Shown here piece after piece: positions 17,853 to 36,369 of a stretch of 64,000 bases of DNA. The notes under the pieces were generated by a model. The model did not search any database. It was not told where the DNA came from and saw only the letters and a list, made by a program, of their open reading frames with translations. The first letter of the stretch is position 1. Each line of letters starts with the position of its first letter. This DNA is from a bacterium (GTDB taxonomy: Bacteria > Patescibacteriota > UBA1384 > VFKW01). The stretch is taken from assembly GCA_030647355.1 (NCBI GenBank), contig JAUSIS010000006.1, forward strand, positions 169,506-233,505, in the 5' to 3' direction. A program made the translations under genes and the position numbers.

Positions 17853-18290
17853 ATGATTTTCCTAGGGGCAGATCATGCCGGCTTTGAATTAAAGGAAGAA
17901 ATTCGCAAATGGCTTCAGGAAAGAGGCGATTCTGTTATGGATATGGGCACCGATTCTAAGGAGAATGTGGATTTTACCGAATATGCCAAAAGCGTTGCCA
18001 AGGCAACGATTGAACAAAACGGAAAAGGGATTCTATTTTGCTCAAGTGGGCAAGGTATGGCGATAGCTGCAAACAAAGTAGACGGAATTCGGGCGGCTGT
18101 AGCTTGGATACCGGAGATAGCCGAAGAATCAAAAGCGCATAGCGACACCAATGTTCTATGTTTACCGGCAAATTTTCTGAAAGCAGATCAGGTAAAAGAA
18201 ATAATAGATAAATGGCTTTCAACTCCTTTCGCCAGCGAACCTCGCTACATCCGCCGCATAAAAAGAATGAAGGAATTTGAAACTAATTAA
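17853..18290 (+). CDS. rpiB: ribose-5-phosphate isomerase B
   Basis: MIFLGADHAGFELKEEI...CSSGQGMAIAANK is the typical RpiB/LacAB signature. Confidence 0.8.
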   Translation: MIFLGADHAGFELKEEIRKWLQERGDSVMDMGTDSKENVDFTEYAKSVAKATIEQNGKGILFCSSGQGMAIAANKVDGIRAAVAWIPEIAEESKAHSDTNVLCLPANFLKADQVKEIIDKWLSTPFASEPRYIRRIKRMKEFETN

Positions 18291-18298
18291 GGAGTGGA

Positions 18299-20720: not shown

Positions 20721-20740
20721 CTAATGCTAGGAGGGAATTC

Positions 20741-21583
20741 ATGTTAGTCACGATAAATGAAGTTCTAAAGCCCGCCCATAAAGCCGGTTACGCCGTCGGC
20801 GCTTTCAATGTCTACAATCTCGAAACTGCACAAGCAGTTATTGCAGCCGCTGAATTGGAAAACTCACCTGTTATTATGGCTGTATCCGAAAAAGCCATTG
20901 AATACGCTGGCTTCGATAATCTTACCGCCCTACTAATAGAAATGGCAGAGCGTTCCAAAGTTCCCGTCGTCGTTCATCTCGATCACGGGACAAACCTGCA
21001 CACAGTTAAAAAATGTATTACTTGCGGGTTTAGCTCAGTAATGTTCGACGCCTCGACTTTGCCGGAAAATGAACGCATAAGAACAACTAAAGAAATTGCT
21101 AAATTTACCCATAAACATGACATAATGATTGAAGGTGAACGCGACGGGCTTGCCGGTCAAGAAGATGATATAGAAGGAGAAGGTCGCTATACCAATCCCG
21201 AAACCGCCGCCGTTTTCGTTGAAGAAACGAACATTGATGCTTTTGCGGTTTCTATCGGCAATGCTCATGGCATCCCCACTCCGGACGAAAAACTCGACTT
21301 CCCACGTCTAGAGCAAATTGCCAAAAATGTTGCCGTTCCACTGGTATTACATGGCGCATCAGGTACGCCTCCTAGTCAAATCAAGCAAGCAATTTCTCTT
21401 GGAATCTCCAAAATCAATATTGATACCGATCTTCGACTCTCCTTTATGGCTACAGTTCATGACGTTTTGATTAATAACCCGGAACTCAAGGACCCCCGTA
21501 AGATGCTCACCGAAGTTAAAAAAGCCATGACTGAAGTTGTAAAGACAAAAATAAGACTTTTTGGTTCAAATGGGAGGATTTAG
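20741..21583 (+). CDS. fba: class II fructose-bisphosphate aldolase
   Basis: VHLDHG and LHGASG motifs. Confidence 0.8.
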   Translation: MLVTINEVLKPAHKAGYAVGAFNVYNLETAQAVIAAAELENSPVIMAVSEKAIEYAGFDNLTALLIEMAERSKVPVVVHLDHGTNLHTVKKCITCGFSSVMFDASTLPENERIRTTKEIAKFTHKHDIMIEGERDGLAGQEDDIEGEGRYTNPETAAVFVEETNIDAFAVSIGNAHGIPTPDEKLDFPRLEQIAKNVAVPLVLHGASGTPPSQIKQAISLGISKINIDTDLRLSFMATVHDVLINNPELKDPRKMLTEVKKAMTEVVKTKIRLFGSNGRI

Positions 21584-22566
21584 TGGCAGCATTTAATGTA
21601 ATCACTATTGGCGATTCAGCTTTCGACACGATCCATTTTATTGATGAGGACGAAGCACGCCTTGTCTGCAATGTTCGCAAACAATTATGCGAGATATGTT
21701 TTGATTACGCCGATAAAATTCCCGTAAAAGAAATTTTTGAATCAGTCGGCGGCAATGCCGCTAACGCGGCAGTTGGTTTCTCGCGCTTAGGTCTCCATGC
21801 GGCAATTTATACTGAAATAGGGGAAGATGAAATTGGTGAAAGCATTATGAGAAAATTGAAAGATGAACATATTAATCTTAAATATGTTCGAAGGCAAGGC
21901 AAGACTAATCAGTCAGCAATTATTACGACAAACGGGGAACGAACAATTTTCTCCTATCATGAAAAAAGAGATTACCACTTACCCAAACTGGAATCATCGG
22001 ATTATATATATTTAACTTCACTAAAAACCGGATTTGACAAAATCCACGAAGCATTGCTTGAACAAATTCGAAGTAAAAAAACATTCCTGGTTTACAACCC
22101 GGGAACTTATCAGCTCAAAGCGGGCATGGTGGCGTCACAAGCTATCCTACACCGGGCGACTATGGTGATCATGAATCGAGAAGAAGCAGCCAGCTGGTTA
22201 AAACTGCCGATTACAACCGACATTAAATCTCTTCTATTCGGGCTCACCAAATTTGGCACGAAAAGTGCCGTGGTAACAGATGGGCACGATGGAGGATATG
22301 GCTTTGATGGAATAAATTATTATTTCTGCCCAATTTATCCACAGCATATCATCGAAACAACTGGAGCTGGCGATAGTTTTGCTACTGGATTATCAGCTGC
22401 CCTGTTTTATGGGGCTTCTCTCAAAGAAGCAATGCGCTGGGGCACAATTAATTCAGCTTCTGTTGTCTCAACTATCGGCAGTCAAACAGGACTTCTCACG
22501 CTCTACGAACTTAAAAAAAGAGCAAAATTGCATGAATCAGTCTGCGCTAGCCCTATTTTGACATAA
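21583..22566 (+). CDS. PfkB-family carbohydrate kinase (ribokinase/phosphofructokinase-like)
   Basis: GGNAANAAVGFSRLG N-terminal motif and TTGAGDSFATG anion hole. Confidence 0.65.
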   Translation: MAAFNVITIGDSAFDTIHFIDEDEARLVCNVRKQLCEICFDYADKIPVKEIFESVGGNAANAAVGFSRLGLHAAIYTEIGEDEIGESIMRKLKDEHINLKYVRRQGKTNQSAIITTNGERTIFSYHEKRDYHLPKLESSDYIYLTSLKTGFDKIHEALLEQIRSKKTFLVYNPGTYQLKAGMVASQAILHRATMVIMNREEAASWLKLPITTDIKSLLFGLTKFGTKSAVVTDGHDGGYGFDGINYYFCPIYPQHIIETTGAGDSFATGLSAALFYGASLKEAMRWGTINSASVVSTIGSQTGLLTLYELKKRAKLHESVCASPILT

Positions 22567-22722
22567 CAAGGAGAAAGTATGAAAATCAAAACACGAGATT
22601 TTACGCTCATAAAGGCCTATTTCAGGTATATTCTTCATATTAAATGATAATGTAATCGGGCAAACCTCTTGTTTAATTGGCCCAGATAATTTATCCTAAA
22701 ATAGATAATTAAAGGAGAAAGT

Positions 22723-23790
22723 ATGAAGCTTGCTATAAATGGTTTTGGCCGTATTGGCCGCAGCGCCTTAAAAATTGCCCTCGAAAATCCCCAAATTGAA
22801 ATAGTAGCAATAAACGATCTCACAGACGCAAAAACATTAGCCCACCTTTTACAATATGATACTGCTTATGGAATTTATAGTCAGCAAGTGGAATCCCAAG
22901 AAAATAATTTGATTATTGCTGGCAAAACAATCCCCGTCTATGCTATCAAAGAACCGGAAACGCTTCCCTGGAAAGATCTACAGGTGGATGTTGTCTTGGA
23001 ATGCACTGGTAGATTTGTCGAATCCGACAAAGCCGGTCTACATATCAAGGCCGGTGCTAAAAAAGTGGTGATTTCTGCTCCGTCTAAGGGTGAAAATGCC
23101 GCCCCGACCTATGTTCTTGGAGTAAATGATCAGGATTATAAAGGGGAGGCGGTAATAAATAATGCATCTTGTACCACCAACTGTATTGCTCCGGTAATGA
23201 AAGTTCTTCAAGAAAAATTCGGAGTCAAAAAAGCCATTCTGGATACCATCCATGCTTATACGCACGATCAAAATATTCAAGACGGACCACACAAAGACCT
23301 GCGCCGTGCCCGTGCCGCCGCCGCTAATATGGTTCCGACCTCTACGGGCGCAGCAATCGCTGCCACTGAAGTCATTCCTGCCCTCAAAGGAAAATTCGAT
23401 GGAACCTCTATTCGCGTTCCGGTTCTGGTTGGCTCTATATCCGACATCACAGTCGTATTGGAAAAGCCAGCTACTGTTGAGGAAATTAACAACGCATTCA
23501 TTGAGGCATCAAAAACTGATCAGCTCAAAGATATATTAACAACCACCAGAGAACCAATTGTGTCTTCGGACATTGTAGGTAACCCTGCCTCATCAATAGT
23601 GGATTTGGCTATGACGCAGGTTGTAGATGGTGATCTTGTAAAGGTCTTCGCTTGGTATGACAATGAGTGGGGATATTCTAATCGGTTAGTGGAAATAGCT
23701 GCCAAAATCGCTCAATATCAATCTACCGATAATAAGCCAGTCGATCTATCAGCTAAAACATCTATCATCCCGCCCAAGCCAATAGTATAG
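22723..23790 (+). CDS. gap: glyceraldehyde-3-phosphate dehydrogenase
   Basis: INGFGRIGR Rossmann start and ASCTTNCIAP active-site Cys. Confidence 0.9.
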   Translation: MKLAINGFGRIGRSALKIALENPQIEIVAINDLTDAKTLAHLLQYDTAYGIYSQQVESQENNLIIAGKTIPVYAIKEPETLPWKDLQVDVVLECTGRFVESDKAGLHIKAGAKKVVISAPSKGENAAPTYVLGVNDQDYKGEAVINNASCTTNCIAPVMKVLQEKFGVKKAILDTIHAYTHDQNIQDGPHKDLRRARAAAANMVPTSTGAAIAATEVIPALKGKFDGTSIRVPVLVGSISDITVVLEKPATVEEINNAFIEASKTDQLKDILTTTREPIVSSDIVGNPASSIVDLAMTQVVDGDLVKVFAWYDNEWGYSNRLVEIAAKIAQYQSTDNKPVDLSAKTSIIPPKPIV

Positions 23791-24718: not shown

Positions 24719-26380
24719 TTATTTCTCTAAAAACGCCTTGTTTCTCTTTGCCCGATGAAAACTTATCCCAAACCGATGCACTTCGTCGCGAATTGCCCGC
24801 AAAAGCAGCAAAGATTTTGACTGCAGATTTAGCGCAATAGGTAATTCAACCTTGGGTATAAAAATCAGCTCATCCTTTTTTACCAAACCGATAATTGGTA
24901 TTTTCAGCCCAAGCTTCTTTAATACTTCACAAGCCGCATTCAATTGTCCTTTCCCGCCATCAATTAAAATCAAACTTGGCTTTGGCAATTCCTTATTATT
25001 TAACCTGCGCGAAACAATTTCTCCCATCATCGCTACATCATTTTGCCCGACGACTGTCTTAATAATAAATTTGCGATAACGATCCTTACAGGGGACGCCT
25101 TTTACAAATGTAACCATAGCGCCAACTGCCTGATTTTCTCCCAAATTGGAGATATCGAACGCCTCAATTATTTGGGGAGATTTTGGAAGCTCTAAATCCC
25201 TCTGCAATGATTCCAATATATTATTCAATTGTTTACTCTTAGTTAAAACTTGATTTGTCGAATCAATTGCATTCTCCAGAGCCAAATCAACAAGCGCCAT
25301 TTGATCCCCTGGTTTTGGTTTGGAAATCTGTGTTTTGATACCTCTTTCTAAAAAAGCGCTCACTAATATTGTTAAATCCTCTACTTCGGTATTAACCAAA
25401 ATCTCCTTTGGAATATCAAAATTATTGACATAATATTGGCTTAAAACCGCATGTAAAATATCTTTCTCGTCGAATTTGTCAACTGCGTCAAATTGTAAAT
25501 TATTGCAATGTAATAATTTCCCTTGCCTAACTTTCATTACTGTACATGTAGCGATATCGTACATTTTATAAACAGCAAATATATCACGATTGGTTAAGTG
25601 CGCTGAAACAATATGTTGGCTCTCTATCAAGCGATTAAGGTTTGCAATCTGATCTCTGGTTTTTGCGGCTCCTTCGAAGTCCATATTATTGGCTTGCTTT
25701 TCCATGTCCAATTGGAGTTCTTTCAATAATTCCTTATAGTTGCCTTTAAGAAATTTAATGGTCGAATTAATGCGGTTGTCATATTCTTCCTTGGTAACCT
25801 TTCCTGCATAAGGTGCAGCACACAAGCCAAGCTGATAATTCAAACATGCCCTCTGCCCCGTCTTATAGGTATGAGTCACAATTCCAAAATTTTTTCGAAT
25901 GAACTGTATGGTTTGTCGCAGCGAATTTGCCGACAAATAAGGGCCAAAATATTTTGCTTTATCATTCAATACATTCCGTGTGATAGTTAAGCGTGGAAAT
26001 TCCTCATTTGTAAGTTTCAAGTAGGGGAATGTTTTATCGTCTTTTAATCGAATATTATATGTTGGATGATATTTTTTAATTAAGTTATTTTCTAATAGTA
26101 GCGCCTCAAACTCGTTGCTAACGATAATTGTTTCAATATCGTCAATTTGCCTGATCATCAGTTCAATCCATGGCGAAGGCAGATCCCTTCTTGCGCTGAG
26201 CGAAGTCGAAGTGTGAAAATATGAGGTAACCCGGTTTTTTAAATTCTTTGCTTTCCCCACATACAAAACTCTACGATTTTCATCTCGCATAATATAGACG
26301 CCTGGTTTTTTTGGAATGTTTCTACATATATCAAGCATGATTCGTATTATACTATAAAAATGACCTTTTGAATATTCCAT
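24719..26380 (-). CDS. uvrC: excinuclease ABC subunit C
   Basis: GIY-YIG domain (PGVYIMRDENRRVLYVGKAKNLKNRVTSYF). UvrBC-interaction, RNaseH-like and HhH regions present. Confidence 0.85.
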   Translation of the reverse strand: MEYSKGHFYSIIRIMLDICRNIPKKPGVYIMRDENRRVLYVGKAKNLKNRVTSYFHTSTSLSARRDLPSPWIELMIRQIDDIETIIVSNEFEALLLENNLIKKYHPTYNIRLKDDKTFPYLKLTNEEFPRLTITRNVLNDKAKYFGPYLSANSLRQTIQFIRKNFGIVTHTYKTGQRACLNYQLGLCAAPYAGKVTKEEYDNRINSTIKFLKGNYKELLKELQLDMEKQANNMDFEGAAKTRDQIANLNRLIESQHIVSAHLTNRDIFAVYKMYDIATCTVMKVRQGKLLHCNNLQFDAVDKFDEKDILHAVLSQYYVNNFDIPKEILVNTEVEDLTILVSAFLERGIKTQISKPKPGDQMALVDLALENAIDSTNQVLTKSKQLNNILESLQRDLELPKSPQIIEAFDISNLGENQAVGAMVTFVKGVPCKDRYRKFIIKTVVGQNDVAMMGEIVSRRLNNKELPKPSLILIDGGKGQLNAACEVLKKLGLKIPIIGLVKKDELIFIPKVELPIALNLQSKSLLLLRAIRDEVHRFGISFHRAKRNKAFLEK

Positions 26381-26468
26381 TGCAGCTTTTATCCTTGATT
26401 TTTTACTGGGTTTTTGCTAGAATTAGCAGGCAATATATCTTGCGCATCTGGAGGGGAGCGTGTAGAAA

Positions 26469-27071
26469 ATGCGAATTCTGGTAATCTCCGCTAATAGTGG
26501 ATACTGGAATGCGCGGTTTGCTTTCATACTACCGGGGGCTTTTGTAGTAATTGTCGGCAATGCCGATGAAGCCATAAGCGCATGCGGTAATGCTGAACGC
26601 TTGGATAAGCCATTTGATGTAGTAATACTCGACATCAGCTCATCCGAGCAAATAGAAGCATGCGACCGGATCTGTGAAAGGGTCCGCCTTTACAGTAATC
26701 CGCTCATCGTCCACTTGGACGGAGGAACTGGCTGTGGGTATTACAACCATATGATCGACTTCCATACCGGGAACGTCGGCATGCCATACCTCACATTTCA
26801 AGATCAAGACGATGTTGCCCTGGCTGTCAGAGCTTATTGCTGCAATCAAGAAGTAGAAAGAGCTCTGGATGATATATTCAGCCAGGATGTCTCAAGTCTC
26901 ATGAGAGCGATGAAGCTGGATGTGACAAGTCCAGTCGACAAACTGACAGAGCTGATAGTGAGAAACTGGGCATACCTAAGTCCACTCATTAGAGCTCGTG
27001 TCAGTGAGCATTTCATCGTTCTAACTGAACCGGTTAGGGTCCAACCCAAGCCAATGCACAATGTCGAATAA
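26469..27071 (+). CDS. hypothetical protein with a degenerate CheY-like receiver fold
   Basis: MRILVIS...FDVVILDI pattern, but it lacks the acidic pocket pair. GGAGGGGAG RBS. GC elevated. Confidence 0.3.
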   Translation: MRILVISANSGYWNARFAFILPGAFVVIVGNADEAISACGNAERLDKPFDVVILDISSSEQIEACDRICERVRLYSNPLIVHLDGGTGCGYYNHMIDFHTGNVGMPYLTFQDQDDVALAVRAYCCNQEVERALDDIFSQDVSSLMRAMKLDVTSPVDKLTELIVRNWAYLSPLIRARVSEHFIVLTEPVRVQPKPMHNVE

Positions 27072-27072
27072 T

Positions 27073-27103
27073 GCCCCGCTAGCTTGAAACGGGGCTCTTT
27101 TTA
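27073..27103 (+). terminator. rho-independent terminator
   Basis: gccccg-ctagcttgaaa-cggggc followed by tcttttta. Confidence 0.5.
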
Positions 27104-27217
27104 TTGATACTCAAAAACTTGACGAATCGCCATCGGTCAGCTACTCTATATCAAACAATATTTGGCAAAGGCGGTATCCTATCCAGCCGTTTTTAGCCAA
27201 GTCAGGAGGGCAGGGGG

Positions 27218-27949
27218 TTGGAGAAAATCAAAAGATCGTTCGTTGATGAGCAGATTCGCCTTGCGTTGGAAGCCCTGGGGCGATCACAGGTTCTTCCCAA
27301 ATGGGCACGATGGACACCCAAGATGTGGCAGGAGGCAGTCCGCCGCGGAATGGATCCCTCTGAAATCATCAACTGCGGGCTCGGTTGGGATTTTACCACA
27401 TTCGGTGTATCCGAGAGGATGTTCCCCAAAACGGGTCTGGTTGCTTTCACCTTGAGCAATGGCAACCCGGACAAGGAATATCCACAGGAGTATTGCCAGA
27501 AACTCCTCTGGCTTCAGGAGGGACAATCAATCCCTTGGCACCACCACAAAGACAAGCGCGAGGACATCTACCACATTGCCGGCGGAAGACTGCGGATGCA
27601 GGTCGCAAGACCAAAGAGGATCAGGGAGAAGTTCGAAGCCGATAAAACGGAGAACCTAATCCTAAGTCTAGAGAACGCTCCAAGGGAGTTCGTACCGTGC
27701 GGAGAGTTCTGGGTTGGCAAAGAATGCCCCAGACGAATTCGGCTCGAGCCGGGCATCGGTCACTTGATGACAGGCGGATGTGGCGGCACGCTACTTGGCG
27801 AAGTATCCAGCGTCAACAAGGAGGTTGGTGTAAGGGTTCAGGACAATACGTTCTGGGCTGGCAATCCCCGCTACATTAACATAGTTGCCGATGTCCCGCC
27901 CCGCTATGTGCTTTGCAACGAGTACGCCGAACTACTGAAAGTCGCCTAA
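27218..27949 (+). CDS. cupin-fold sugar isomerase, D-lyxose ketol-isomerase-like
   Basis: IPWHHHKDKREDIYHIAGGRL resembles the D-lyxose isomerase metal site (HxHxxxxxE...GG). AGGAGGG RBS and TTG start. GC about 55%. Confidence 0.45.
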   Translation: MEKIKRSFVDEQIRLALEALGRSQVLPKWARWTPKMWQEAVRRGMDPSEIINCGLGWDFTTFGVSERMFPKTGLVAFTLSNGNPDKEYPQEYCQKLLWLQEGQSIPWHHHKDKREDIYHIAGGRLRMQVARPKRIREKFEADKTENLILSLENAPREFVPCGEFWVGKECPRRIRLEPGIGHLMTGGCGGTLLGEVSSVNKEVGVRVQDNTFWAGNPRYINIVADVPPRYVLCNEYAELLKVA

Positions 27950-27972
27950 CCGGTACACGACGGCAAGCTCAT

Positions 27973-28000
27973 AAGGAACCATCAGGTTCCTTCTTTTTTC
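27973..28000 (+). terminator. rho-independent terminator
   Basis: aaggaacc-atca-ggttcctt followed by cttttttc. Confidence 0.5.
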
Positions 28001-28047
28001 ATCTTGAAAATATTAATTCAAACAAGTAAAGTTAGGACAGGAGTAAT

Positions 28048-28554
28048 ATGCAATGGATTGCCATAAGTGGCAGCTGGCGCAAAACCAATCAAGAAATTGA
28101 AGCTAAAGTACGACAAACAGTCGCCGAAATAATTAATAATGGCAATGGAATAGTAACCGGCGGCGCTTTGAATGTTGATTATTTTGCCACTGACGAAGCC
28201 ATGAAATGTGACTCATCTTTTAATAAAATAAAAATAGTTCTTCCATCTTCTCTGGAAACTTATGCCAAACATTACCACAAAAGAGCCGATGAAGGCGTGA
28301 TTACCAAAGAGCAAGCAGAAAACTTAATAACTCAGTTAGCGAAAATTCGAAACACAAATCTCGACTCGATTATCGAAGGGAAATTTGAAATAATTGACAG
28401 AGTAGCATACTTCGATAGGATCACAAAGATAATAGGCACCGCCGACAAACTAATTGCCTTCCAGGTAAATAATAGTGAAGGCGTCCAGGACACCATCAAT
28501 AAAGCCAAACAAAAAGGCATTCCAATAGAATTATATAGTTTTACTGCGGAGTAA
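28048..28554 (+). CDS. minimal DprA/Smf-like Rossmann-fold protein (SLOG superfamily)
   Basis: WIAISGSWRK (iAVVGsR-like), GIVTGGALNVDYFATDEAM (VSGlAlGIDaaAH-like), IKIVLPSSLETY, and C-terminal IAFQV...SEGVQDTINKA...KGIPIELYS. Confidence 0.45.
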   Translation: MQWIAISGSWRKTNQEIEAKVRQTVAEIINNGNGIVTGGALNVDYFATDEAMKCDSSFNKIKIVLPSSLETYAKHYHKRADEGVITKEQAENLITQLAKIRNTNLDSIIEGKFEIIDRVAYFDRITKIIGTADKLIAFQVNNSEGVQDTINKAKQKGIPIELYSFTAE

Positions 28555-28556
28555 TT

Positions 28557-28973
28557 ATGGCAAAATTACGGATTGTTGTAGTAATAATTAGAAATAACCA
28601 AGGGCAATATTTTGTCCATCAGCGCCGTTTAGATAAAGAATCTTGCCCAGATGGGTATGCTCTCGGTATCGGCGGGAGAATTGAACAGGATGAAGATATC
28701 CATACCGCCGCCAAACGGGAATTAAAAGAGGAGTCTGGAATTGTTAAGCCCGTTAAGTTCTTGTTTAGTTTAGATATGAATTACATCGGTATGGATGAAA
28801 TAATTCATGTCTTTTATCTTTCCAATGACGCTGAAATTAAAAATCACGATATCGAATGGCAATGGTCCGGCTGGATGACACAAAAAGAAGTTGACGAACT
28901 CGTAGAAAATGGAAAATTATGCCCCGACACGGCTGAATATTATACAAAATATAAGAGCAAATATGAGCGATAA
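28557..28973 (+). CDS. NUDIX hydrolase
   Basis: Nudix box GGRIEQDEDIHTAAKRELKEESGI. 2-nt gap to the upstream gene. Confidence 0.65.
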   Translation: MAKLRIVVVIIRNNQGQYFVHQRRLDKESCPDGYALGIGGRIEQDEDIHTAAKRELKEESGIVKPVKFLFSLDMNYIGMDEIIHVFYLSNDAEIKNHDIEWQWSGWMTQKEVDELVENGKLCPDTAEYYTKYKSKYER

Positions 28974-29580
28974 AGAAACGATTGAGGTTTACAAACAACT
29001 TGGCAAGAAATATTGTAAAAATATTGAGCTACTTTATATTGCCGAATTGTACAAATTCATGAAATTACTTCCAAAGAACGGCGAAGTTCTCGATGTCGGC
29101 TGTGCCGGTGGCAGAGATACGGAAGAATTTATAAAAAATGGCTTCCAAGTAACTGGTATTGATTTAGTTGATGAATTTCTAGAAGGCGCTAAAAAATTCG
29201 CCTCCGAAGGTCGTTTTATAAAAATGGATGTTGAAAATCTCCAGTTTCCAAGTAATTATTTTGACGGTATCTATGCTGCTGCCGTATTACTACATGTAGC
29301 AAAAAATAAAATACCGGCTATCCTAGCAATTTTTCATCGTATACTAAAAGCTGATGGGATACTTTTTATTGGAGTGAAAGAGGGCTATGGTGAAAAAAGA
29401 GTAGCCGACGATACATTGGCAGGTGGTTTGAGTAGATTTTACTCGTTCTTTTCCAAAGAGGAGCTAACACAATTACTAAAACAGGCAGGTTTTGACATTA
29501 TTTTCAGTAGGAATGTTCCAGACGAAGCCGGTAGATCAGAAGTCCATTGGATAAGAATAATCGCCAGGAAACAAACATGA
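28963..29580 (+). CDS. class I SAM-dependent methyltransferase
   Basis: VLDVGCAGGRD motif I. Overlaps both neighbours. Confidence 0.6.
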   Translation: MSDKETIEVYKQLGKKYCKNIELLYIAELYKFMKLLPKNGEVLDVGCAGGRDTEEFIKNGFQVTGIDLVDEFLEGAKKFASEGRFIKMDVENLQFPSNYFDGIYAAAVLLHVAKNKIPAILAIFHRILKADGILFIGVKEGYGEKRVADDTLAGGLSRFYSFFSKEELTQLLKQAGFDIIFSRNVPDEAGRSEVHWIRIIARKQT

Positions 29581-30137
29581 AAATAGTCCTTGCTTCCGGT
29601 TCTCCGCGCAGGAAACAATTAATGGAAACGACAGGGCTCGCCTTTGAAATCGATATTCCGGACTTTGACGAAAGGGGAGTAGTTGAAAAATCAGCCCATA
29701 AATTGGCGGAAATCTTAGCTCACAAAAAAGCCAAATCAGTTGCTTCGCGCCACCCTGATTCAATAGTTATCGGCTCCGATCTTGTCGTTGCTTATCTAGA
29801 TAAACAAATTGGTAAGCCTCAAAACGAACAAGATGCCAAAGAGATATTGCAATTATTGCGCGGAAAAACTCATCAAGTTATCACTAGCGTTGCTGTCGTG
29901 AACACTGGCAATAAAAAACAGGCAACAGCAGTAAATATATCAAATGTAACGATGAATAATTATACAGACAAAGAAATTGACGACTACATTGCCACCAGCG
30001 AACCAATGGATAAGGGTGGAGCATACGCTATTCAAGGCATTGGCGGCAAATTGGTTGAAAAATTCGACGGCGACATCGAAACGATCATTGGGTTACCAAC
30101 CAAAACCCTCACTAGTCTAATTAAGAAAGTTCAATAG
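29577..30137 (+). CDS. maf: Maf-like nucleoside-triphosphate pyrophosphatase
   Basis: MKIVLASGSPRR Maf N-terminus. Start overlaps the upstream stop (ATGA). Confidence 0.75.
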   Translation: MKIVLASGSPRRKQLMETTGLAFEIDIPDFDERGVVEKSAHKLAEILAHKKAKSVASRHPDSIVIGSDLVVAYLDKQIGKPQNEQDAKEILQLLRGKTHQVITSVAVVNTGNKKQATAVNISNVTMNNYTDKEIDDYIATSEPMDKGGAYAIQGIGGKLVEKFDGDIETIIGLPTKTLTSLIKKVQ

Positions 30138-30144
30138 GTTATTT

Positions 30145-30417
30145 ATGAAGATAGTTATATTTATACTAATCTCGTTTGCTAGCTATGCAGTTGGAAGAAT
30201 AAGCCACATTTTAGGCGGAGATTTAAATGTTCCGCATCATTGGATATATGGTGTTCTCTCAATAATCATCGGATTAATATTTTATAAGCACGATTGGGGC
30301 AAATGGCTGATTGCCTTTGGACTAGGCATGGTAATCAGCGATTTCAAGGACATGATTGGATGTAAATTCGTTGGACCCGATGATGTCAAAATCAAAAAAT
30401 TCTGGGGAATAGATTAA
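30145..30417 (+). CDS. small membrane protein (hypothetical)
   Basis: Two or three predicted TM helices. No recognisable motif. Confidence 0.35.
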   Translation: MKIVIFILISFASYAVGRISHILGGDLNVPHHWIYGVLSIIIGLIFYKHDWGKWLIAFGLGMVISDFKDMIGCKFVGPDDVKIKKFWGID

Positions 30418-30477
30418 ATTTTATACTTCACTTGAACATAAAACAGATATTAGAGTATATTAGATACAAGGAGAATA

Positions 30478-31296
30478 ATGGACAAGCAAAACTCAATTAA
30501 AAATCGTCCCGATTGGCACATTGACGCAAAATGGGCATGCGTCTTATTTCTGATCCCGATTTTTACCATCACCTTTTTAATTTTTAATTTGTATATGGTA
30601 ACAAAAAAGGACAATGCGATAAAAATTGTCACTACCCTCACATCGGCTATGTATGCCCCGGGTGATAAAAGTCAGGATATAGAAAAAGTACGAGCATTAA
30701 TAAAAGAGAGCCCTGACAAAAACTTCAAACCTTTCCCTGGGATGGATATTGTAATTACCGAGCAAGACCTCAATAAATATAATAGTGGAGAACTTAAACA
30801 AAAACTCTTTAGTCAGCTAGCCGAAAATATCTATAAATACGATGCAAATAAAAACTCTCAATCCACGGTTAAGCATCGCAATGCTTTTTCCGACTTAGGA
30901 TTCATGGCGCTTCTCACTAAGCAAGGACACGACGCCCTGGGTAGATATTTACTTATCCCTGCAATAGCTACTTTACTATTATTATCTCTTACGCTTTTCT
31001 TTAGTGCCGGCTTTGGCAAGGCTATTACCGCTGGCTTGATATTTATCATAGTAGGCTTTATACCGACTATAATACTATTTATACAAGGAAATGCGTCAAT
31101 CTCCTCTGCTGATACTAGTCAAATGAGCGTAACGCAGGGAGTCTCCTCGATAATGAGACAAATCGGTCCGTTGCTCTCTCAAATCATGCTGAAGAATTAC
31201 CTTACTTTATTAATTGGCGGACTATTTTTACTTATTTTCGGGTTTATTGCAAGGCAGATCCAAAAAAGAAAATTTCACAAAACCCCAGCTGCCTAA
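30478..31296 (+). CDS. membrane protein (hypothetical)
   Basis: AAGGAG RBS. N-terminal and multiple C-terminal TM helices. Confidence 0.4.
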   Translation: MDKQNSIKNRPDWHIDAKWACVLFLIPIFTITFLIFNLYMVTKKDNAIKIVTTLTSAMYAPGDKSQDIEKVRALIKESPDKNFKPFPGMDIVITEQDLNKYNSGELKQKLFSQLAENIYKYDANKNSQSTVKHRNAFSDLGFMALLTKQGHDALGRYLLIPAIATLLLLSLTLFFSAGFGKAITAGLIFIIVGFIPTIILFIQGNASISSADTSQMSVTQGVSSIMRQIGPLLSQIMLKNYLTLLIGGLFLLIFGFIARQIQKRKFHKTPAA

Positions 31297-31366
31297 ACTC
31301 TTCTAAAAGCACATCTTATTGTTACAAATCCTCAAAGCGAGGAGTAATGTTGAGACAGGAGGGCAA

Positions 31367-31795
31367 ATGCAAATTGCTAGAAAAATAGGGTCACTTTTCT
31401 TATTGGTCATAGGGATTTTTTATATATGGTACGAACTAATGACAACAATCTTACCCAGTATGGCTTCTCATTCACCCCTCTATCACACAATATTCTATTT
31501 TCTCTATTTATTCTTTCCCCTCGACCTATTACTATTAGCAATGATTATTTGGCCTCTATCTCGTTCAAAGAAAATTAATCGTACATTACTTTTTACTTTT
31601 TCAGGAGCGATGCTTTTCCTCGCCGTATATGTCCCATTGGCGATCTATGGCAGTTTAGACTTCGCAATTCACTTTATTACCTATAGCTGGTTAGGTCTTA
31701 TTTGGTACATTATCCCCATCGCCGGAATAGTAAGAGCAATAAAGTTAAGCAACCGCAAACAAGCCAAAGTTTCTAAACTCAACGAAAAGGATTAA
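31367..31795 (+). CDS. membrane protein (hypothetical)
   Basis: CAGGAGGG RBS before the ATG at 31367 (MQIARKIG...). Four predicted TM helices. Confidence 0.4.
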   Translation: MQIARKIGSLFLLVIGIFYIWYELMTTILPSMASHSPLYHTIFYFLYLFFPLDLLLLAMIIWPLSRSKKINRTLLFTFSGAMLFLAVYVPLAIYGSLDFAIHFITYSWLGLIWYIIPIAGIVRAIKLSNRKQAKVSKLNEKD

Positions 31796-31858
31796 ATACT
31801 GGTAAATATTATATTAAAAGCGTGTTAGTGCCAAAACTTTATTGGCATATCAATGCCA

Positions 31859-31882
31859 TGAAAAAAGGCTGCGTAAGCAGCC
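31859..31882 (-). terminator. rho-independent terminator for the small minus-strand gene
   Basis: ggctgc-gtaa-gcagcc hairpin, followed on the minus strand by TTTTTT. Confidence 0.5.
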
Positions 31883-31913
31883 GAATGGATTGACCTCCAA
31901 GATGCTAATCCGA

Positions 31914-32237
31914 CTAATCGGAATACTTGACCTTTCCCCCAAGCCCCTTGAACGTCTCGGCGACACTCTTGACGACGTTATTAAACGCCGCCGCATTGAA
32001 CCTCTTATGAAGATCAGTTTCCACTCTCTTCTTGACTTCTTCTCTAGCGGCGGCGATATCTACACTGCCATCTTCGAGAAGACGACGGTGAAGTGCGAGA
32101 GTGGTGAAGTTCAACTGACTAAGACTTGGACCAGGCGTTTGGATCAAGAATGTGGCAATCTCAAACTGCATGGAGGCTTTCTTAGTCGCGTCCGGAGAGT
32201 CCGGCATAGCGATTTTACGTATCCTTCCCGCTCTCAC
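31914..32237 (-). CDS. small GC-rich hypothetical protein (97-107 aa) in a self-contained promoter-ORF-terminator unit
   Basis: Balanced amino-acid composition, unlike the overlapping plus-strand ORF. Own sigma70-like promoter and terminator. GC about 55%. The MPDSP start at 32207 is possible. Confidence 0.4.
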   Translation of the reverse strand: MRAGRIRKIAMPDSPDATKKASMQFEIATFLIQTPGPSLSQLNFTTLALHRRLLEDGSVDIAAAREEVKKRVETDLHKRFNAAAFNNVVKSVAETFKGLGGKVKYSD

Positions 32238-32274
32238 TATTTCTCACATCCTCTCTCAAAGCGGTATTTCACTA

Positions 32275-32303
32275 ATTTTACATTACAAAATACGATCCGT
32301 CAA
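32275..32303 (-). promoter_or_regulatory. sigma70-like promoter (TTGACG-17-TAAAAT) on the minus strand
   Basis: Plus-strand cgtcaa at 32298-32303 and atttta at 32275-32280. Confidence 0.4.
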
Positions 32304-32326
32304 CCCCACTGACAGAGTTAATTGTC

Positions 32327-32358
32327 AATAAAAAGATGCACGCCCCTACGACGTGCAT
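32327..32358 (-). terminator. rho-independent terminator downstream of purM
   Basis: atgcacg-cccctacga-cgtgcat hairpin, followed on the minus strand by a T-run. Confidence 0.45.
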
Positions 32359-32368
32359 TACGTGATGG

Positions 32369-33394
32369 TTATACGACCTTTACCCCCTTGTGACCTTGAA
32401 CGATCTTGCCAATCACCCAAGCCCTCTCGCCGAAAGAGTTTAGATGCTGAAGAACATCGCTTACATCTTCCCTGCGGACGACAATGATCATTCCAACTTT
32501 CATGTTGAACGTCTTCAGCATCTCGGCGCGCGAATTCCCGGATGCTTGCTGAATCCAATCAAAGACCGCATCCCGCTCCCACGATGAGTAGTCAACGATA
32601 GCCCTATGCCACTTAGGCAGTACACGTACGAGGTTATCCGGAATGCCCCCGCCGGTGATATGCGCCGCTCCACGGATAAGGTGAAGATTGAAAAGTGGAT
32701 AAAGCGCATCGAAATAGCACCGGTGGCCGGTAAGAAGCGCCTTTCCAACCGTTGACTCGGGATTCCAGGGCGCAGGATCGTCCACAGTCAGTCCGACTTT
32801 TTCCAGCACCTTGCGTACGAGCGACCAGCCGTTGGTGTGCAAGCCATTAGACGCCAGACCGACCAGTACGTCACTGACAAGAATCGCTTTGCCGGTGACC
32901 AGCTTGCTTTTGTCAACTATGCCCGTAATACATCCTGCCAGATCAAAAATACCGGGCATGTAGAAACCTGGCATCTCTGCAGTCTCTCCGCCAGTCATGC
33001 TAACATTCAGTGCTCGACAGGCATTAGTCGCGCCAATGACTGCTTGAGCCATCTGCTGCTTGTTGAGCACTCCGGCCGCAAAATAGTCCAGGAAAGTCAA
33101 TGGTCTCGCCCCGTGAACCAGGATGCCATTGACCGAGTGGTTCACGAGAGCTTCCCCGGCGACACCACAATTGTTGGCGTCAATGGCGACCTTAATTATC
33201 GCTCCCACCCTGTCAATGCTCTGGATAAGAACATTCTGGTCGTCAGGCCGAAGGTACATTCCACCAAAACCACCAATCCCCCCAAGAACACGCGATCCGT
33301 GCGTACTTCGTACGGCATCTTTGATAAGACCTACCGCTTCCTTGCCAGCATCAATATTGACGCCGGCGTCCTTGTAAGTAATCCTGTCAGCCAA
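32369..33394 (-). CDS. purM: phosphoribosylformylglycinamidine cyclo-ligase (AIR synthetase)
   Basis: DAGVNIDAG N-terminal motif and the PurM N/C domain pattern. Length 341 aa. Confidence 0.85.
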   Translation of the reverse strand: MADRITYKDAGVNIDAGKEAVGLIKDAVRSTHGSRVLGGIGGFGGMYLRPDDQNVLIQSIDRVGAIIKVAIDANNCGVAGEALVNHSVNGILVHGARPLTFLDYFAAGVLNKQQMAQAVIGATNACRALNVSMTGGETAEMPGFYMPGIFDLAGCITGIVDKSKLVTGKAILVSDVLVGLASNGLHTNGWSLVRKVLEKVGLTVDDPAPWNPESTVGKALLTGHRCYFDALYPLFNLHLIRGAAHITGGGIPDNLVRVLPKWHRAIVDYSSWERDAVFDWIQQASGNSRAEMLKTFNMKVGMIIVVRREDVSDVLQHLNSFGERAWVIGKIVQGHKGVKVV

Positions 33395-33516
33395 TCAGAT
33401 TCACCTCCAATAAACGTCGTTCAGCAGTGTACGCTCACAATAACAAAATAAAATTCTTATAGCAAACAATACAAAACCAAGTTTTATTATAAAAAACATT
33501 CCTACCAAAATATTTT

Positions 33517-36369
33517 CTACTTTAGAAACTTCTTTAGATACTGCCCGGTATAAGAGGAAACATTTTCTTTTATATCCTCCGGCGTTCCTTGCGCCACAAT
33601 CTTGCCGCCTTTTTCTCCGCCTTCCGGCCCGAGATCGATTATCCAATCCAATGTCTTTATAACATCCATATTATGCTCAATTAATAGAACTGTATTACCT
33701 AAATTTACCAGACGATTCAAAACTTCCAGCAACTTCTCAACATCGGCAAAGTGCAAACCGGTCGTCGGTTCGTCTAATATATAAAATGTCCGTCCCGTAC
33801 TCCTTTTTGACAATTCCGCCGCTAATTTAATCCTCTGCGCTTCGCCACCCGACAAAGTCGTCGCCGATTGCCCTAATTTAATATATCCCAAACCAACATC
33901 CGCCAGAGTCTGCAATTTATCCTTTATTTGAGGAATGTCAGAGAAAAACTCTGTAGCTTCCTTAACAGTCATATCTAAAACCTGAGCAATATTTTTGCTT
34001 TGCCATCGTACCTCTAATGTTTCACGATTATATCTCTGCCCATGGCAAACCTCACAAGAGATATAAATATCGGGCAGAAAATGCATTTCGATTTTAATAA
34101 GTCCATCGCCACGGCAATTTGCGCACCGTCCACCTTCGACATTAAAACTGAATCTTCCTGGCATATATCCGCGCGATTTTGCCTCGATAGTCCGTGCAAA
34201 CAAATCCCTAATATGATCAAATGTCTTGGTATATGTGGCTGAATTGGAGCGAGGAGTTCGGCCGATGGGGGATTGGTCAATGATAATAACTTTATCAATA
34301 TGTTCCAGCCCTGAAATTGACAAATACCTGCCTGGCTTCTCGTACGCCCCATGCAATTTATTCATCAACGCTTTATACAATATCTCATCAACCAGAGTAG
34401 ATTTTCCCGAACCCGAAACACCAGTAATCCCAACAAACTTACCAAGCGGAATTTTGACCTTAATGTTTTTTAAATTATTTTCCCGAGCGCCCTCCACAAT
34501 TAAAAACTTCTTATTACCGACTCTCCGTTTTTTTGGTATCTCAATTTTTTTCTTTCCTGACAAATATTGACCAGTAATAGATTCGCTCTCGGCAATTATA
34601 TTCTCCAAGTTGCCGGTCGCCACAATCTTTCCGCCTAATTCACCAGCGCCTGGCCCGATATCGACTATGAAATCTGCTTGTCGAATTGTCTCCTCATCGT
34701 GCTCAACTACTATTACACTATTGCCCAAGTCTCGAAGTGACTTGAGTGTGTCCACAAGCCGTTGATTGTCTCTCTGATGTAACCCGATTGTCGGTTCGTC
34801 CAACACATATAGCACACCAACTAATGAGGACCCGATCTGTGATGCTAAACGAATTCTCTGCGCTTCTCCGCCCGACAATGTCATCGCTGCTCTATCCAAT
34901 GTCAAATAATCTAAACCGACTCTCACCAAAAAATCAATTCTATTTTGAACTTCTTTCAAGATTCGTTCGGCAATTAATGTATCTCTCCGGCTAATTTTCA
35001 GTTCCTTAAAAAATGTCGCTATCTGTTCTGTTGCAAGCGATGAAAGCTCGGCGATATTCTTTCCGCCAACCCTTACCAACAGGCTTTCCGGCTTTAATCT
35101 AGTGCCGTGACATTCCAAACACGTTTTTGAAATCATATAATGTTCAATTTCGTCACGTATCGCATCAGATTCTGTCTCAAGATAACGCTTCTCTAGGTAG
35201 GGTATAATGCCAATAAAATTTGTCTCAAAGGTTCTAGCTCGACCAAGTGCCCAATAGCGCACAGTAATTCTCTGTGGAGTTTCCACTCCATACATTAGTA
35301 ACTGTTTTTCTCGCTCACTAAGTAATTTAATCTGTATATTTACATTAATTCCTAGAAATTTTGATGCAGACAGGATGATCGCTCCATAATAATTACCTTC
35401 CGAAAACAACGCTGGCAACACTCCACCTTCGGCAATTGTTAATTTTTCATTTGGCATGACTAAAGTCGGATCAACTTCTTTTTTAAATCCTAACCCATGA
35501 CAAGCCGAACACGCTCCGTAAGGGCTATTGAAAGAGAATGTTCTCGGTGCAATATCGCCAAAACTGATGTTGCAATTAGGACATGATAATTGCTCGGATA
35601 GCATAATTTCACTTTGGTCGTCCAAAGCTTTGCGCGAAGGAGACTCGTCTTTATCCTCGATTTTTATTATCACTAACCCGCGTGCTAATTTTAATGCCGA
35701 TTCTAGAGCTTCGCTTAATCGGCTTCGCAAGCTTTGTCCGATTATCAATCTATCAACAACAACCTCAATCGAGTGTGCCTTGTAACGCTCTAACTCTATC
35801 TTGTCATTTAAATTCTTAACCTCGCCATTTACCCTAACCCTCGAAAAACCTCCACGGTATAAATCATATAAAAGCTGATGATATTCACCTTTTCTTCCGC
35901 GAACGACGGGAGCCAAAATCATTATTCTAGTATTCTCACCCAAATCATTTATAAGCTCAATCATCTGATCAACCGTCTGTCTGGAAATAACCTTGTTGCA
36001 TTTTGGACAATGAGGTTTGCCGATTCTGGCATACAAAAGTCGTAAATAATCATAAATTTCAGTAACAGTGCCAACTGTAGAGCGTGGATTGTGACTAGTC
36101 GCTTTTTGATCAATAGAAATAGCAGGGGACAAACCTTCGATATAGTCAACATCTGGTTTGTTCATCTGCCCTAAAAATTGCCTAGCATAACTAGACAAGC
36201 TCTCAACATATCGTCTTTGTCCTTCGGCAAAAATCGTATCAAAAGCCAGCGAAGACTTTCCTGAGCCGGAAATTCCCGTAAATACTACCAATTTATTGCG
36301 CGGAATTTCTAGATCAATATTCTTTAAATTATGTTCCCGCGCTCCTTTAATAACAATTTTTTCTTCCAT
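33517..36369 (-). CDS. uvrA: excinuclease ABC subunit A
   Basis: Two ABC ATPase modules ([10 protein letters not shown] / [10 protein letters not shown]; LSGGEAQR twice), zinc-finger cysteines. Length 950 aa. Confidence 0.9.

Follow-up and report, generated by a model that had tools for sequence, protein, structure and literature searches.

The four co-oriented genes studied here are best explained, with moderate confidence, as a lineage-specific and probably co-transcribed string of ordinary genes in the compact genome of a member of the Patescibacteria (CPR), which share a theme of nucleotide sanitation and do not form a conserved four-gene system. None of the four is disrupted, and each retains the motifs for catalysis or binding. 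The locus lies within a window, that is the whole stretch of DNA that was analysed, of 64 kb, and its features are listed in Table 1.

Table 1. Positions of the four genes and of neighbouring features in the window
Feature	Position	Strand	Description
Gene 1	28048-28554	+	168 aa, predicted stand-alone SLOG-fold protein, DprA/YpsA branch
Gene 2	28557-28973	+	138 aa, predicted Nudix hydrolase
Gene 3	28963-29580 (longest ORF from 28909)	+	205 aa, predicted class I SAM-dependent methyltransferase; start likely
Gene 4	29577-30137 (longest ORF from 29547)	+	186 aa, Maf nucleotide pyrophosphatase; start likely
Hydrophobic ORF, 90 aa	30145-30417	+	begins 7 nt past the Maf stop; no family match
Two hydrophobic-looking ORFs, 272 and 158 aa	30478-31795	+	hydrophobicity judged by eye
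Terminator-like hairpin	27973-27992, with T-run to 28000	+	AAGGAACC-ATCA-GGTTCCTT, 8-bp stem, tail CTTTTTTCAT
Sigma-70-like promoter match	28004-28032	+	TTGAAA-17-TAAAGT, 9/12 consensus matches

Layout of the locus and its enzymes

A sequence-only reading of this DNA had described four co-oriented genes with a 2-nt gap or overlapping stops and starts, coding for a DprA/Smf-like Rossmann protein of the SLOG superfamily, a NUDIX hydrolase, a class I SAM methyltransferase and a Maf pyrophosphatase. This description was borne out: the ORFs are all present on the + strand, a fold search agrees for the first protein, the profile scores of the second and third lie above the cut-offs, and the fourth passes the Maf profiles with its motif intact. 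Genes 1 and 2 are separated by 2 nt (TAA-TT-ATG), genes 2 and 3 overlap by 11 nt and genes 3 and 4 by 4 nt (ATGA). The true start of gene 3 is likely to be ATG 28963, since the 205-aa product agrees with the database entry and with the N-termini of homologues. Similarly ATG 29577 is the likely start of gene 4, since the 186-aa product opens with MKIVLASGSPRR, a Maf-like N-terminus.

The hairpin at 27973 ends the upstream lyxose-isomerase-like gene. Downstream of the promoter-like site AGGAG is found, followed after 5 nt by the gene-1 ATG. It should be noted here that promoter-like sites in the region are no commoner than in shuffled sequence and that this one is a consensus match only. No terminator-like site was found on the + strand between 28048 and 32500. 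The 90-aa ORF is probably part of the transcription unit of the four genes, and the two ORFs beyond it may extend the unit because no terminator-like site lies between the cluster and them; these three ORFs were absent from the earlier reading. MreC and MreD are classic neighbours of maf, and Pfam profiles gave no match to their families among the downstream hydrophobic-looking ORFs. Co-transcription of the four genes is probable judging from their spacing. Tight spacing is common within the window, where 21 of 61 junctions measure 14 nt or less on a crude longest-ORF map, and hence it is unremarkable alone. Rfam and tRNA scans revealed nothing near the cluster. The flanking genes are housekeeping ones: uvrC, a thioredoxin-reductase-type pyridine nucleotide-disulphide oxidoreductase, gap, an AIR-synthase-related gene and uvrA.

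The product of gene 4 scores 191.2 bits for the Maf family PF02545 (cut-off 27) and 166.6 bits for TIGR00172 (cut-off 117.15), and it retains every position of the Maf motif S-R-E-K-D-K (S9, R12, D31/E32, K50, D68, K80). Its best PDB matches are BsMaf with 122 bits and YhdE with 113 bits, while two YceF chains reach 113 and 97 bits. The subfamily signature, R11-L69-Q, is of YhdE type at two of the three positions (YhdE has R-T-Q, YceF W-Q-E). Gene 4 shares the signature Arg at residue 1 and Gln at residue 3 with the YhdE subfamily (B. subtilis Maf, 1EX2; E. coli YhdE, 4P0E), whereas residue 2 is Leu in place of the Thr of YhdE or the Gln of YceF; because of this Leu the base preference of the enzyme may differ.

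By its profiles gene 2 is predicted to be a Nudix hydrolase, distantly MutT/MTH1-like, with a substrate that the profiles do not define. It scores 53.4 bits for PF00293 (cut-off 21.1) and carries an intact Nudix box at residues 40-62, GRIEQDEDIHTAAKRELKEESGI, of the pattern GX5EX7REUXEEXGU; two MutT equivalog models stay under their cut-offs (49.8 vs 148 and 42.7 vs 97.9). Gene 3 is predicted to encode a class I methyltransferase of small-molecule type, Methyltransf_11/TehB-like, with 70.5 bits for Methyltransf_11 (cut-off 21.2) and VLDVGCAGG as motif I. Its best NCBIfam match, the DVU_1556 family, gave 60.6 bits against a cut-off of 155 and no equivalog was reached. No ASMT-type family was found among its Pfam matches, and a search of metagenomes returned only distant methyltransferases (24-42% identity).

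The family of gene 1

The sole sequence-family matches of gene 1 are the DprA models PF02481 and TIGR00732, both under their curated cut-offs (a weak 21.6 bits vs 29.6, and 21 bits vs 191.15), and some of its relatives score better for the DprA profile, the best with an E-value of 1.8e-9. The AF2 model has a pLDDT of 96.3 and forms one compact domain. In the fold search DprA, ShosA and YpsA came out as top structural matches and ThsA-SLOG, LOG and the Moco carrier protein were likewise among them, all members of the SLOG superfamily whose Rossmannoid fold gene 1 has. The fold search thus bears out the assignment of gene 1 to the Rossmann proteins of DprA/SLOG type, in a minimal form. It was found that gene 1 has 424 homologues of 165-175 aa (about 168) with identities of 53-68%, and that the family comprises 115 clusters at E<=1e-30 among 1.84 billion representatives. 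The family is small, very strongly conserved and patchily distributed, and the patchy distribution suggests horizontal spread.

DprA motif 1 has been defined as G-S/T/A-R with an Arg52 switch (PMC3950713). In the gene-1 family this motif is G-S-W-R (G8-S9-W10-R11 in gene 1), the form G[ST]W[RK] being present in at least 171 of 198 members; the invariant Trp aligns with Arg52 of HpDprA and the Arg is shifted by one. The further motifs of gene 1 are GGALNVD, a helical insert and Y121-x-x-R124. The insert is family-specific, has about 50 residues and contains the invariant H75, R79 and E82. Y121 and R124 are also invariant, within a family consensus Y-Y-E-R-N that reads Y-F-D-R-I in the window protein and lies at the place of DprA motif 2 in the pocket helix (F/L/Y-x-x-R-N/D), as read off the alignment, the regular expression also picking up an HYRKRA insert. 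The Y-x-x-R part of the base-binding helix motif of DprA is kept, and we infer that gene 1 may bind, perhaps process, a nucleotide or a single exposed base.

Gene 1 shares the Rossmann fold with DprA/Smf (HpDprA 4LJK, RpDprA 3MAJ), but it is a single domain of 168 aa without SAM or winged-helix domain, has Trp at the Arg52 position and shows no competence context in its 25 commonest partner families. With YpsA (PF06908, 2NX2) and ShosA (8ZVA) it has the same DprA-branch SLOG fold in common, but not a gpsB-type or phosphoribosyltransferase (ShosT) partner, and the YpsA profile matched one of 26 family members, weakly (E 0.007). From LOG/PpnN it differs in the absence of the catalytic motif PGGxGTxxE, the equivalent loop being N-x-S-x-G-V-Q-D-T; neither gene 1 nor the tested relatives matched the LOG family PF03641, and the structural match is more distant than that to DprA. 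The G-S-W-R family is the only element of the locus that may be new. YpsA and Maf both inhibit division when over-expressed; a cell-division reading was considered and the data are neutral towards it.

It could be argued from the sole matches to DprA models that gene 1 is what is left of a genuine dprA after truncation or in the course of decay. This is extremely unlikely. The homologues are full-length at 165-175 aa, the model is compact, confident and single-domain, motif 1 is altered and the insert is peculiar to the family, the scores stay under the curated cut-offs, and the 25 families seen most often in the 138 operon partners of gene 1 include none related to competence. As a candidate, truncated dprA was ruled out by the existence of a conserved stand-alone family of about 168 aa.

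Neighbourhoods of the homologues

Neighbourhoods were sampled at 80 genome loci with gene-1 homologues (tblastn, phmmer). No Maf was found near the homologues in the 80 loci, nor any co-oriented adjacent methyltransferase like gene 3; the two gene-3-like methyltransferases that do occur are distant and neither is an operon partner of gene 1. Nudix genes are present in 9 of the 80 loci, all of other subfamilies, and their frequency within two genes of gene 1 (7/278) is close to that further away (10/541; p=0.61). BLAST clustering of 916 neighbouring ORFs yielded no conserved partner of gene 1, and in a Pfam census of 138 same-strand partners Maf and methyltransferase families were absent from the 25 most frequent. 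Class I methyltransferases amount to 3 of about 840 ORFs near canonical gene-1 homologues, none of them co-oriented and adjacent. Even the closest homologue, with 68% identity, has unrelated neighbours. Cross-searches of six contexts of gene-3 orthologues and four of gene-2 orthologues detected no other member of the cluster. The four-gene combination never recurs elsewhere among the contexts examined, which were anchored on genes 1, 2 and 3 and sampled from distant relatives (best homologues 68%, 62% and 54% identical, respectively).

The sequence-only reading had taken the tight coupling to imply a shared pathway and had proposed gene-neighbourhood conservation across related genomes as a check. 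The module is not kept in the sampled contexts. Since the four genes were not found together in the 80 gene-1 loci and the 10 gene-2 and gene-3 contexts, a dedicated four-gene pathway is not supported. That reading had named two findings that would speak against a module; one of them, that the four genes do not co-occur elsewhere, was made, and the other, that gene 1 is a truncated dprA, was not.

It had also pointed out that SLOG and Nudix proteins occur together in nucleotide-signalling or conflict systems. A conflict or defence system of this kind was considered here, and a toxin-antitoxin pair like ShosTA or PsyrTA is a related idea. Gene 1 is indeed structurally similar to ShosA and to the SLOG domain of ThsA, and weak partial PADLOC matches were observed (PsyrA 1.5e-5 for gene 1, PDC-S07 3e-9 for gene 2 and mad2 1e-19 for gene 3). 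These are, however, generic domain matches. Nudix genes are not enriched near gene 1, neither a toxin nor an effector accompanies gene 1 in the 80 loci, nor is any other gene conserved beside it, the gene-1 profile found nothing in 2.9 million viral contigs, and the flanks are housekeeping genes. In contrast to Thoeris ThsA, ShosTA and PsyrTA, the locus has neither their partner (TIR/ThsB, ShosT PRTase or PsyrT helicase) nor a defence-island context. The conflict-system reading is largely refuted and we consider it very unlikely.

A weak association with house-cleaning enzymes

A weaker signal appears when the tight partners of gene 1 are considered. A MazG-like gene lies 10 nt upstream of one homologue (L016), an NTPase_I-T 7 nt upstream of another (L035), and Nudix genes 4 nt and 18 nt upstream of two more (L060, L068). 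House-cleaning NTPases make up 4 of 40 tight partners as compared to 15 of 735 other ORFs (one-sided Fisher p=0.013), in a test that rests on four genes and on a category set after seeing the data. The gene-1 copies with such partners are mutually just 46-59% identical, so these partnerships represent independent lineages. In addition, the gene-1 domain is fused to a MazG-like NTPase in one protein (P0195) and to a borderline ASCH-like domain in another (P0191), and in a sister SLOG subfamily (P0234, P0239) the fusion partners are class I methyltransferases, to which gene 3 is unrelated; all the fusions are singletons at the 90% cluster level. A CDA-type deaminase is also among the tight partners in other lineages, and in one clade gene 1 stands between PNPase and RNase J. 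These observations point weakly to an excess, across unrelated genomes, of nucleotide-cleaning enzymes as neighbours of the gene-1 family. The earlier proposal of a house-cleaning module holds, weakly, at the level of the theme, the family being found beside or fused to house-cleaning NTPases of several folds, and fails for the four-gene module, which does not recur.

The same observations bear on a true shared pathway by which nucleotides that are non-canonical or methylated would be removed. Here Maf and Nudix would turn modified NTPs into NMPs, the SLOG protein would bind the modified NMP or cleave it, perhaps in the manner of a LOG-like N-glycosidase, and the methyltransferase would make or tag the substrate. 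Maf is known to prefer modified NTPs, and in eukaryotes and a number of archaea it lies beside methyltransferases or is fused with them; the pairing (the human ASMTL fusion, a Staphylothermus marinus gene pair) was proposed earlier as a functional relationship (PMC3899018). As in an ASMTL-type unit, Maf is directly coupled to a class I methyltransferase at our locus. The translationally coupled junctions, the fusions, the tight NTPase, Nudix and deaminase partners in other lineages and the position between PNPase and RNase J would all fit such a pathway. However, the two enzymes are separate genes here, gene 3 is neither of ASMT type nor related to the fused methyltransferase domains, and its six orthologue contexts are without Maf. 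Moreover, the four genes were never found together again, class I methyltransferases are rare by canonical gene-1 homologues, each fusion is a singleton, and gene 1, devoid of the LOG motif, is nearer to DprA, a known ssDNA binder rather than an enzyme. We regard the shared pathway as unlikely, although the methyltransferase fusions of the sister subfamily and the Maf-methyltransferase literature leave room for a tighter functional link.

At the other extreme, the operon could be an accident of genome compaction, with gene 1 a minimal DprA-like binder of single-stranded nucleic acid or a YpsA-like regulator that has nothing to do with its neighbours. The almost wholly variable neighbourhood of gene 1, the background frequency of Nudix genes and the equally tight spacing of about one third of the window junctions favour pure juxtaposition, as do the nearest folds, DprA (ssDNA binding) and ShosA, and the retained helix motif. 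It does not explain why house-cleaning NTPases of three folds are recurrent tight partners or fusions in independent lineages, and in the family an invariant Trp occupies the Arg52 position, on which ssDNA binding by HpDprA critically depends. Juxtaposition alone is rather improbable.

The favoured reading is a lineage-specific string with a shared theme. From what is known of the families, the YhdE-like Maf would split pyrimidine or modified NTPs into NMP and PPi, and the MutT-like Nudix would hydrolyse (damaged) nucleoside di- or triphosphates of a different set. The methyltransferase would act on some small molecule, and gene 1 would contribute its nucleotide or base binding. Nucleotide-pool sanitation and salvage is most likely the theme of the operon, because in independent lineages house-cleaning NTPases that differ in fold (Nudix, MazG-like, NTPase_I-T) lie tightly beside homologues of gene 1 or are fused to them. 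It is more probable that the four products work in parallel than that each performs an obligate step of a single pathway. It is a tentative and rather doubtful further idea that the 168-aa G-S-W-R proteins are an undescribed stand-alone SLOG family that recognises or cleaves non-canonical mononucleotides beside interchangeable house-cleaning NTPases (Nudix, MazG-like, NTPase_I-T, Maf). Such a family would filter modified nucleotides from salvage in scavengers of host nucleic acids, namely CPR bacteria, DPANN archaea and Micavibrio, with the window operon as the fullest example.

As a four-gene system the string matters little, being a single occurrence of enzymes from known families, and it ought not to be passed on as a module. 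The gene-1 family is worth keeping, as it fails the tests for DprA proper and is linked, weakly but repeatedly, to enzymes that sanitise the nucleotide pool. The lifestyle of episymbiotic, genome-reduced microbes hinges on their nucleotide economy. If the sanitation link is true, the family would be a new player in their house-cleaning and salvage metabolism, and annotators would have reason to drop the DprA label, which is misleading because it wrongly implies competence.

Layout and products of the gene cluster

The segment 28048-30137 carries four intact ORFs on the plus strand, listed in the table with neighbouring features. The tight coupling of four co-oriented genes described in the sequence-only reading was confirmed by the ORF map, and start sites were corrected with the help of homologue N-termini. 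The listed start of gene 3 is favoured because the resulting product is identical to the database protein P0121 and its N-terminus agrees with those of homologues. The gene 4 product, read from its most likely start, opens with MKIVLASGSPRR, like B. subtilis Maf. The fifth ORF is followed by two further ORFs, which were judged hydrophobic by eye. As the scan of 28048-32500 gave no plus-strand terminator-like site, the unit may comprise seven genes, not four. The source genome is metagenome-assembled, and the best homologues of its genes belong to Patescibacteria/CPR lineages, for example Berkelbacteria and Campbellbacteria.

Features of the window in and around the gene cluster
Feature	Position	Strand	Remarks
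Second Nudix gene	4970-5407		PF00293, 41.9 bits
Sugar-phosphate operon	17853-23790		tightly packed
GC patch	26001-28000		47% GC
Orphan ORF	26469-27071		200 aa, no family; in first GC patch
D-lyxose-isomerase-like cupin	27218-27949		in first GC patch
Hairpin with T-run	27973-27992	+	closes lyxose-isomerase-like gene upstream of gene 1
Promoter-like match	28004-28032	+	TTGAAA-17-TAAAGT, upstream of gene 1
Gene 1, small DprA/SLOG-type	28048-28554	+	168 aa; preceded by AGGAG
Gene 2, Nudix	28557-28973	+	138 aa; begins 2 nt past gene 1 stop
Gene 3, methyltransferase	from ATG 28963 (most likely start)	+	205 aa; 11-nt overlap with gene 2
Gene 4, Maf	from ATG 29577 (most likely start)	+	186 aa; ATGA overlap with gene 3
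Fifth ORF	30145-30417	+	90 aa, hydrophobic, no family; 7 nt past Maf stop
Overlapping ORFs	31842-32312	both	156 aa (+), 107 aa (-)
Terminator-like hairpins	31882-31867, 32358-32336	-	in or beside the overlapping ORFs
GC patch	32001-34000		47% GC
AIR-synthase-related (PurM-like) gene	32369-33394	-	in second GC patch

The GC-rich patches lie on either side of the cluster, which has 38% GC, and they may be foreign DNA. The overlapping ORFs further downstream (about 0.5 kb) belong to no Pfam family, and their region is without Rfam match.

Assignment of the last three genes to the Nudix, class I SAM methyltransferase and Maf families was borne out by profile matches and intact motifs, and they are new members of known families. 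Judged from its sequence, gene 4 encodes a genuine Maf (191 bits with PF02545; 166.6 bits with TIGR00172, exceeding the cut-off of 117.15). The S-R-E-K-D-K motif defined by Tchigvintsev et al. 2013 (PMC3899018) is intact in it as S9, R12, D31/E32, K50, D68 and K80. Its subfamily signature is R-L-Q, compared with R-T-Q in YhdE and W-Q-E in YceF, which makes it YhdE-like, although Leu is unusual as the second residue. Substrates of the YhdE subfamily are dTTP, UTP and pyrimidine NTPs that carry modifications. In gene 2 the Nudix box is intact (residues 40-62); likeness to MutT/MTH1 is only distant and all equivalog scores are under their cut-offs. The second Nudix gene in the window is a sign that such genes are common in the source genome. 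Gene 3 has an intact motif I, attains no specific family cut-off, and its closest solved structures are small-molecule methyltransferases.

A stand-alone family in the SLOG superfamily

Placement of gene 1 in the SLOG superfamily was upheld by its DprA fold. Against DprA models it scores below threshold (21.6 bits versus 29.6 for PF02481; 21 versus 191 for TIGR00732). A search of 5.8 billion proteins gave 424 homologues; nearly all are 165-175 aa long and share 53-68% identity with gene 1. The family is nonetheless small, with 115 clusters among 1.84 billion representatives at E<=1e-30 (243 at E<=1e-10), and a scan of viral contigs found no member. Confidence in the AlphaFold model is very high (pLDDT 96.3). 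That gene 1 is a truncated dprA, an outcome which the sequence-only reading had kept in view, is thus scarcely credible, as it represents a family and not a fragment.

Mean column identity in a 26-sequence alignment is 58%, and the invariant positions include G8, W10, R11, G38, G39, D44, H75, R79, E82, Y121, R124 and N141. Two motifs have been proposed as defining DprA domains (PMC3950713). The family consensus keeps the pocket-helix motif as Y-Y-E-R-N, for which the window protein reads Y-F-D-R-I, and G-S/T/A-R is replaced by G-S-W-R, which puts a near-invariant Trp at the position of the HpDprA Arg52 switch. A helical insert some 50 residues long (HYRKRADEGVIT...) sets the family apart from DprA, as does its lack of SAM and winged-helix domains. 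Gene 1 therefore shares the fold of DprA but differs in motif 1, profile score and architecture, and its identification as DprA was rejected. Nor does it satisfy the YpsA profile or contain the LOG motif. Gene 1 is a distinct stand-alone family, a new variant in the DprA/YpsA branch of the SLOG superfamily. Targeted searching found no literature describing this G-S-W-R family. A more distant subfamily (P0309, P0312, P0321 and P0331; 278-297 aa) is extended at the N-terminus by 60-85 residues, has a tail at the C-terminus and a longer insert, and shows no Pfam match beyond a weak one to DprA.

The family is patchily distributed. Besides CPR it was observed in DPANN archaea (loci L006, L013, L075), Pseudanabaena (L017, L030, L031, L034, L045) and Micavibrio/Alphaproteobacteria (L021, L066, L076). 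Transfer between domains is suggested by two Pacearchaeota copies that share 65-66% identity with CPR copies, whereas the median for pairs within the family is 52%. The Pseudanabaena copies group as a separate clade (72-84%). The 'Burkholderiales' locus L008 (34% GC) is probably a mis-binned CPR contig.

Conservation of the four-gene block

Gene neighbourhoods were compared in 80 genome loci with gene 1 homologues and up to 6 kb of flank per side, mostly from CPR, with some from DPANN archaea, Pseudanabaena and Micavibrio. No other window protein gave a tblastn match in these loci at E<=1e-5. By phmmer, their 916 called ORFs contained no Maf, a few Nudix genes of other subfamilies than gene 2, and two distant gene 3-like methyltransferases, one adjoining in opposite orientation, the other five genes off. 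All-against-all clustering revealed no conserved neighbour, the biggest cluster being a Nudix group in 9 of the 80 loci. Nudix genes occur near gene 1 homologues at background frequency (profile matches in 7/278 genes within two positions versus 10/541 farther away, p=0.61). Maf and methyltransferase families are absent from the 25 commonest Pfam families of 138 co-oriented partners. The nearest homologue (68% identity) has neighbours unrelated to the cluster; a heliorhodopsin gene (PF18761; L081:2768-3553) lies 1.5 kb upstream of the closest homologue, and an opposite-strand 168-aa ORF there (1995-2501) is no gene 1 paralogue by tblastn.

In six contexts of gene 3 orthologues (45-54% identity) Maf was never adjacent, and the neighbours included H+-PPase, glyoxalase, EamA, SWIB and IMPase. 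In four contexts of gene 2 orthologues (44-62% identity) gene 1, gene 3 and Maf were never nearby, and a cross-check of both sets gave no cross-hits. A Ser_hydrolase gene (PF06821) follows each of the two closest gene 2 orthologues (L092:4440-5012, L093:4440-5012), and a protein similar by eye is encoded directly 3' of a gene 1 homologue (L078:6505-7077); it is possibly a small recurring neighbour. The four genes thus never occur together in these loci anchored on genes 1, 2 or 3, all from genomes not closely related to this one; this is one of the outcomes that the sequence-only reading had itself named as telling against it.

Tight spacing has to be read with caution. On a crude ORF map 21 of the 61 junctions in the window are of 14 nt or less, so that a run of tight junctions alone is weak evidence in this genome. 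On the other hand, such runs can be functionally coherent, as in the sugar-phosphate operon with its -4/-4/-1 junctions; there Pfam matches confirmed PfkB kinase and GAPDH, and rpiB-like, rpe-like, split transketolase and aldolase genes were recognised mostly by eye. That the genes are merely juxtaposed, gene 1 being a nucleic-acid binder, is improbable. A conflict system, which had also been proposed, is very improbable.

Possible relation to nucleotide-pool sanitation

Tight partners were defined as genes on the same strand within 30 nt of a gene 1 homologue in the 80 loci. They include a MazG-like gene (L016, 10 nt), NTPase_I-T (L035, 7 nt) with an overlapping IMPase/CysQ-like gene on the other side, Nudix (L060, 4 nt; L068, 18 nt), a CDA-type deaminase (L026, 18 nt), a Macro domain (L075, 7-nt overlap), an AAA_33 kinase (L077, 11 nt) and a YgjP-like hydrolase (L049, 11 nt). 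Of the 40 tight partners, 4 are house-cleaning NTPases (Nudix, MazG-like, NTPase_I-T, Maf), versus 15 of the 735 other ORFs in these loci (one-sided Fisher p=0.013, one fixed-synteny clade collapsed), an enrichment that is suggestive only, since the category was set after seeing the data. The gene 1 copies concerned are mutually 46-59% identical, like random family pairs, so the associations arose in separate lineages, with non-homologous enzymes of the same function.

An exhaustive profile search gave rare multidomain relatives. In P0195 a MazG-like NTP pyrophosphohydrolase is fused directly to the gene 1 domain; P0197 is a SLOG-Mur ligase fusion, and P0191 joins SLOG to a borderline ASCH-like N-terminus (20.2 bits, cut-off 21.2). 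In P0234 and P0239 a class I methyltransferase domain precedes a SLOG domain of a sister subfamily; the two SLOG domains share 45% identity and a derived insert (HL[KR]xWA[KR]GHxTGDP), and no likeness is detectable between the methyltransferase domains. Each of the five stands alone in its 90% cluster and is therefore a lead, not proof. In one clade of Woesebacteria/Shapirobacteria-type contigs, some labelled 'Gammaproteobacteria' (L012, L036, L038, L048, L050, L057, L079), the fixed string rpsO, PNPase, gene 1, AAA/Lon-lid ATPase (about 353 aa) and RNase J (e.g. L048:3455-9415; gaps 11-17 nt) embeds the homologue among RNA-degradation genes.

The house-cleaning alternative of the sequence-only reading thus keeps weak support, at the level of theme, from tight partners and fusions of gene 1. 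Around canonical homologues, by contrast, class I methyltransferases are seldom seen, with 3 among about 840 ORFs and none both adjoining and in the same orientation. Maf-methyltransferase linkage is known from the ASMTL fusion and Staphylothermus (PMC3899018); the window, in contrast, has a different methyltransferase type and the linkage is not conserved. A shared pathway, in which Maf or Nudix turns modified NTPs into NMPs that the SLOG protein handles with involvement of the methyltransferase, is unlikely, if a little less so than juxtaposition. We lean towards a lineage-specific operon instead of a conserved system. Maf and Nudix would be independent sanitising pyrophosphatases, and it has been noted that Maf and Nudix UTPases may act in parallel (PMC3899018). 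The methyltransferase would act on some small molecule, and gene 1 is predicted to hold a nucleotide or single base in a DprA-like pocket, probably with Trp10 as cap. The link of the gene 1 family with sanitation is suggestive, loose and at the level of theme.

The claim of a module thus dissolves, and the G-S-W-R family remains as a point of low to moderate interest. Source databases sometimes name its members DprA, a label that wrongly implies competence. The family is a reasonable target for biochemistry.
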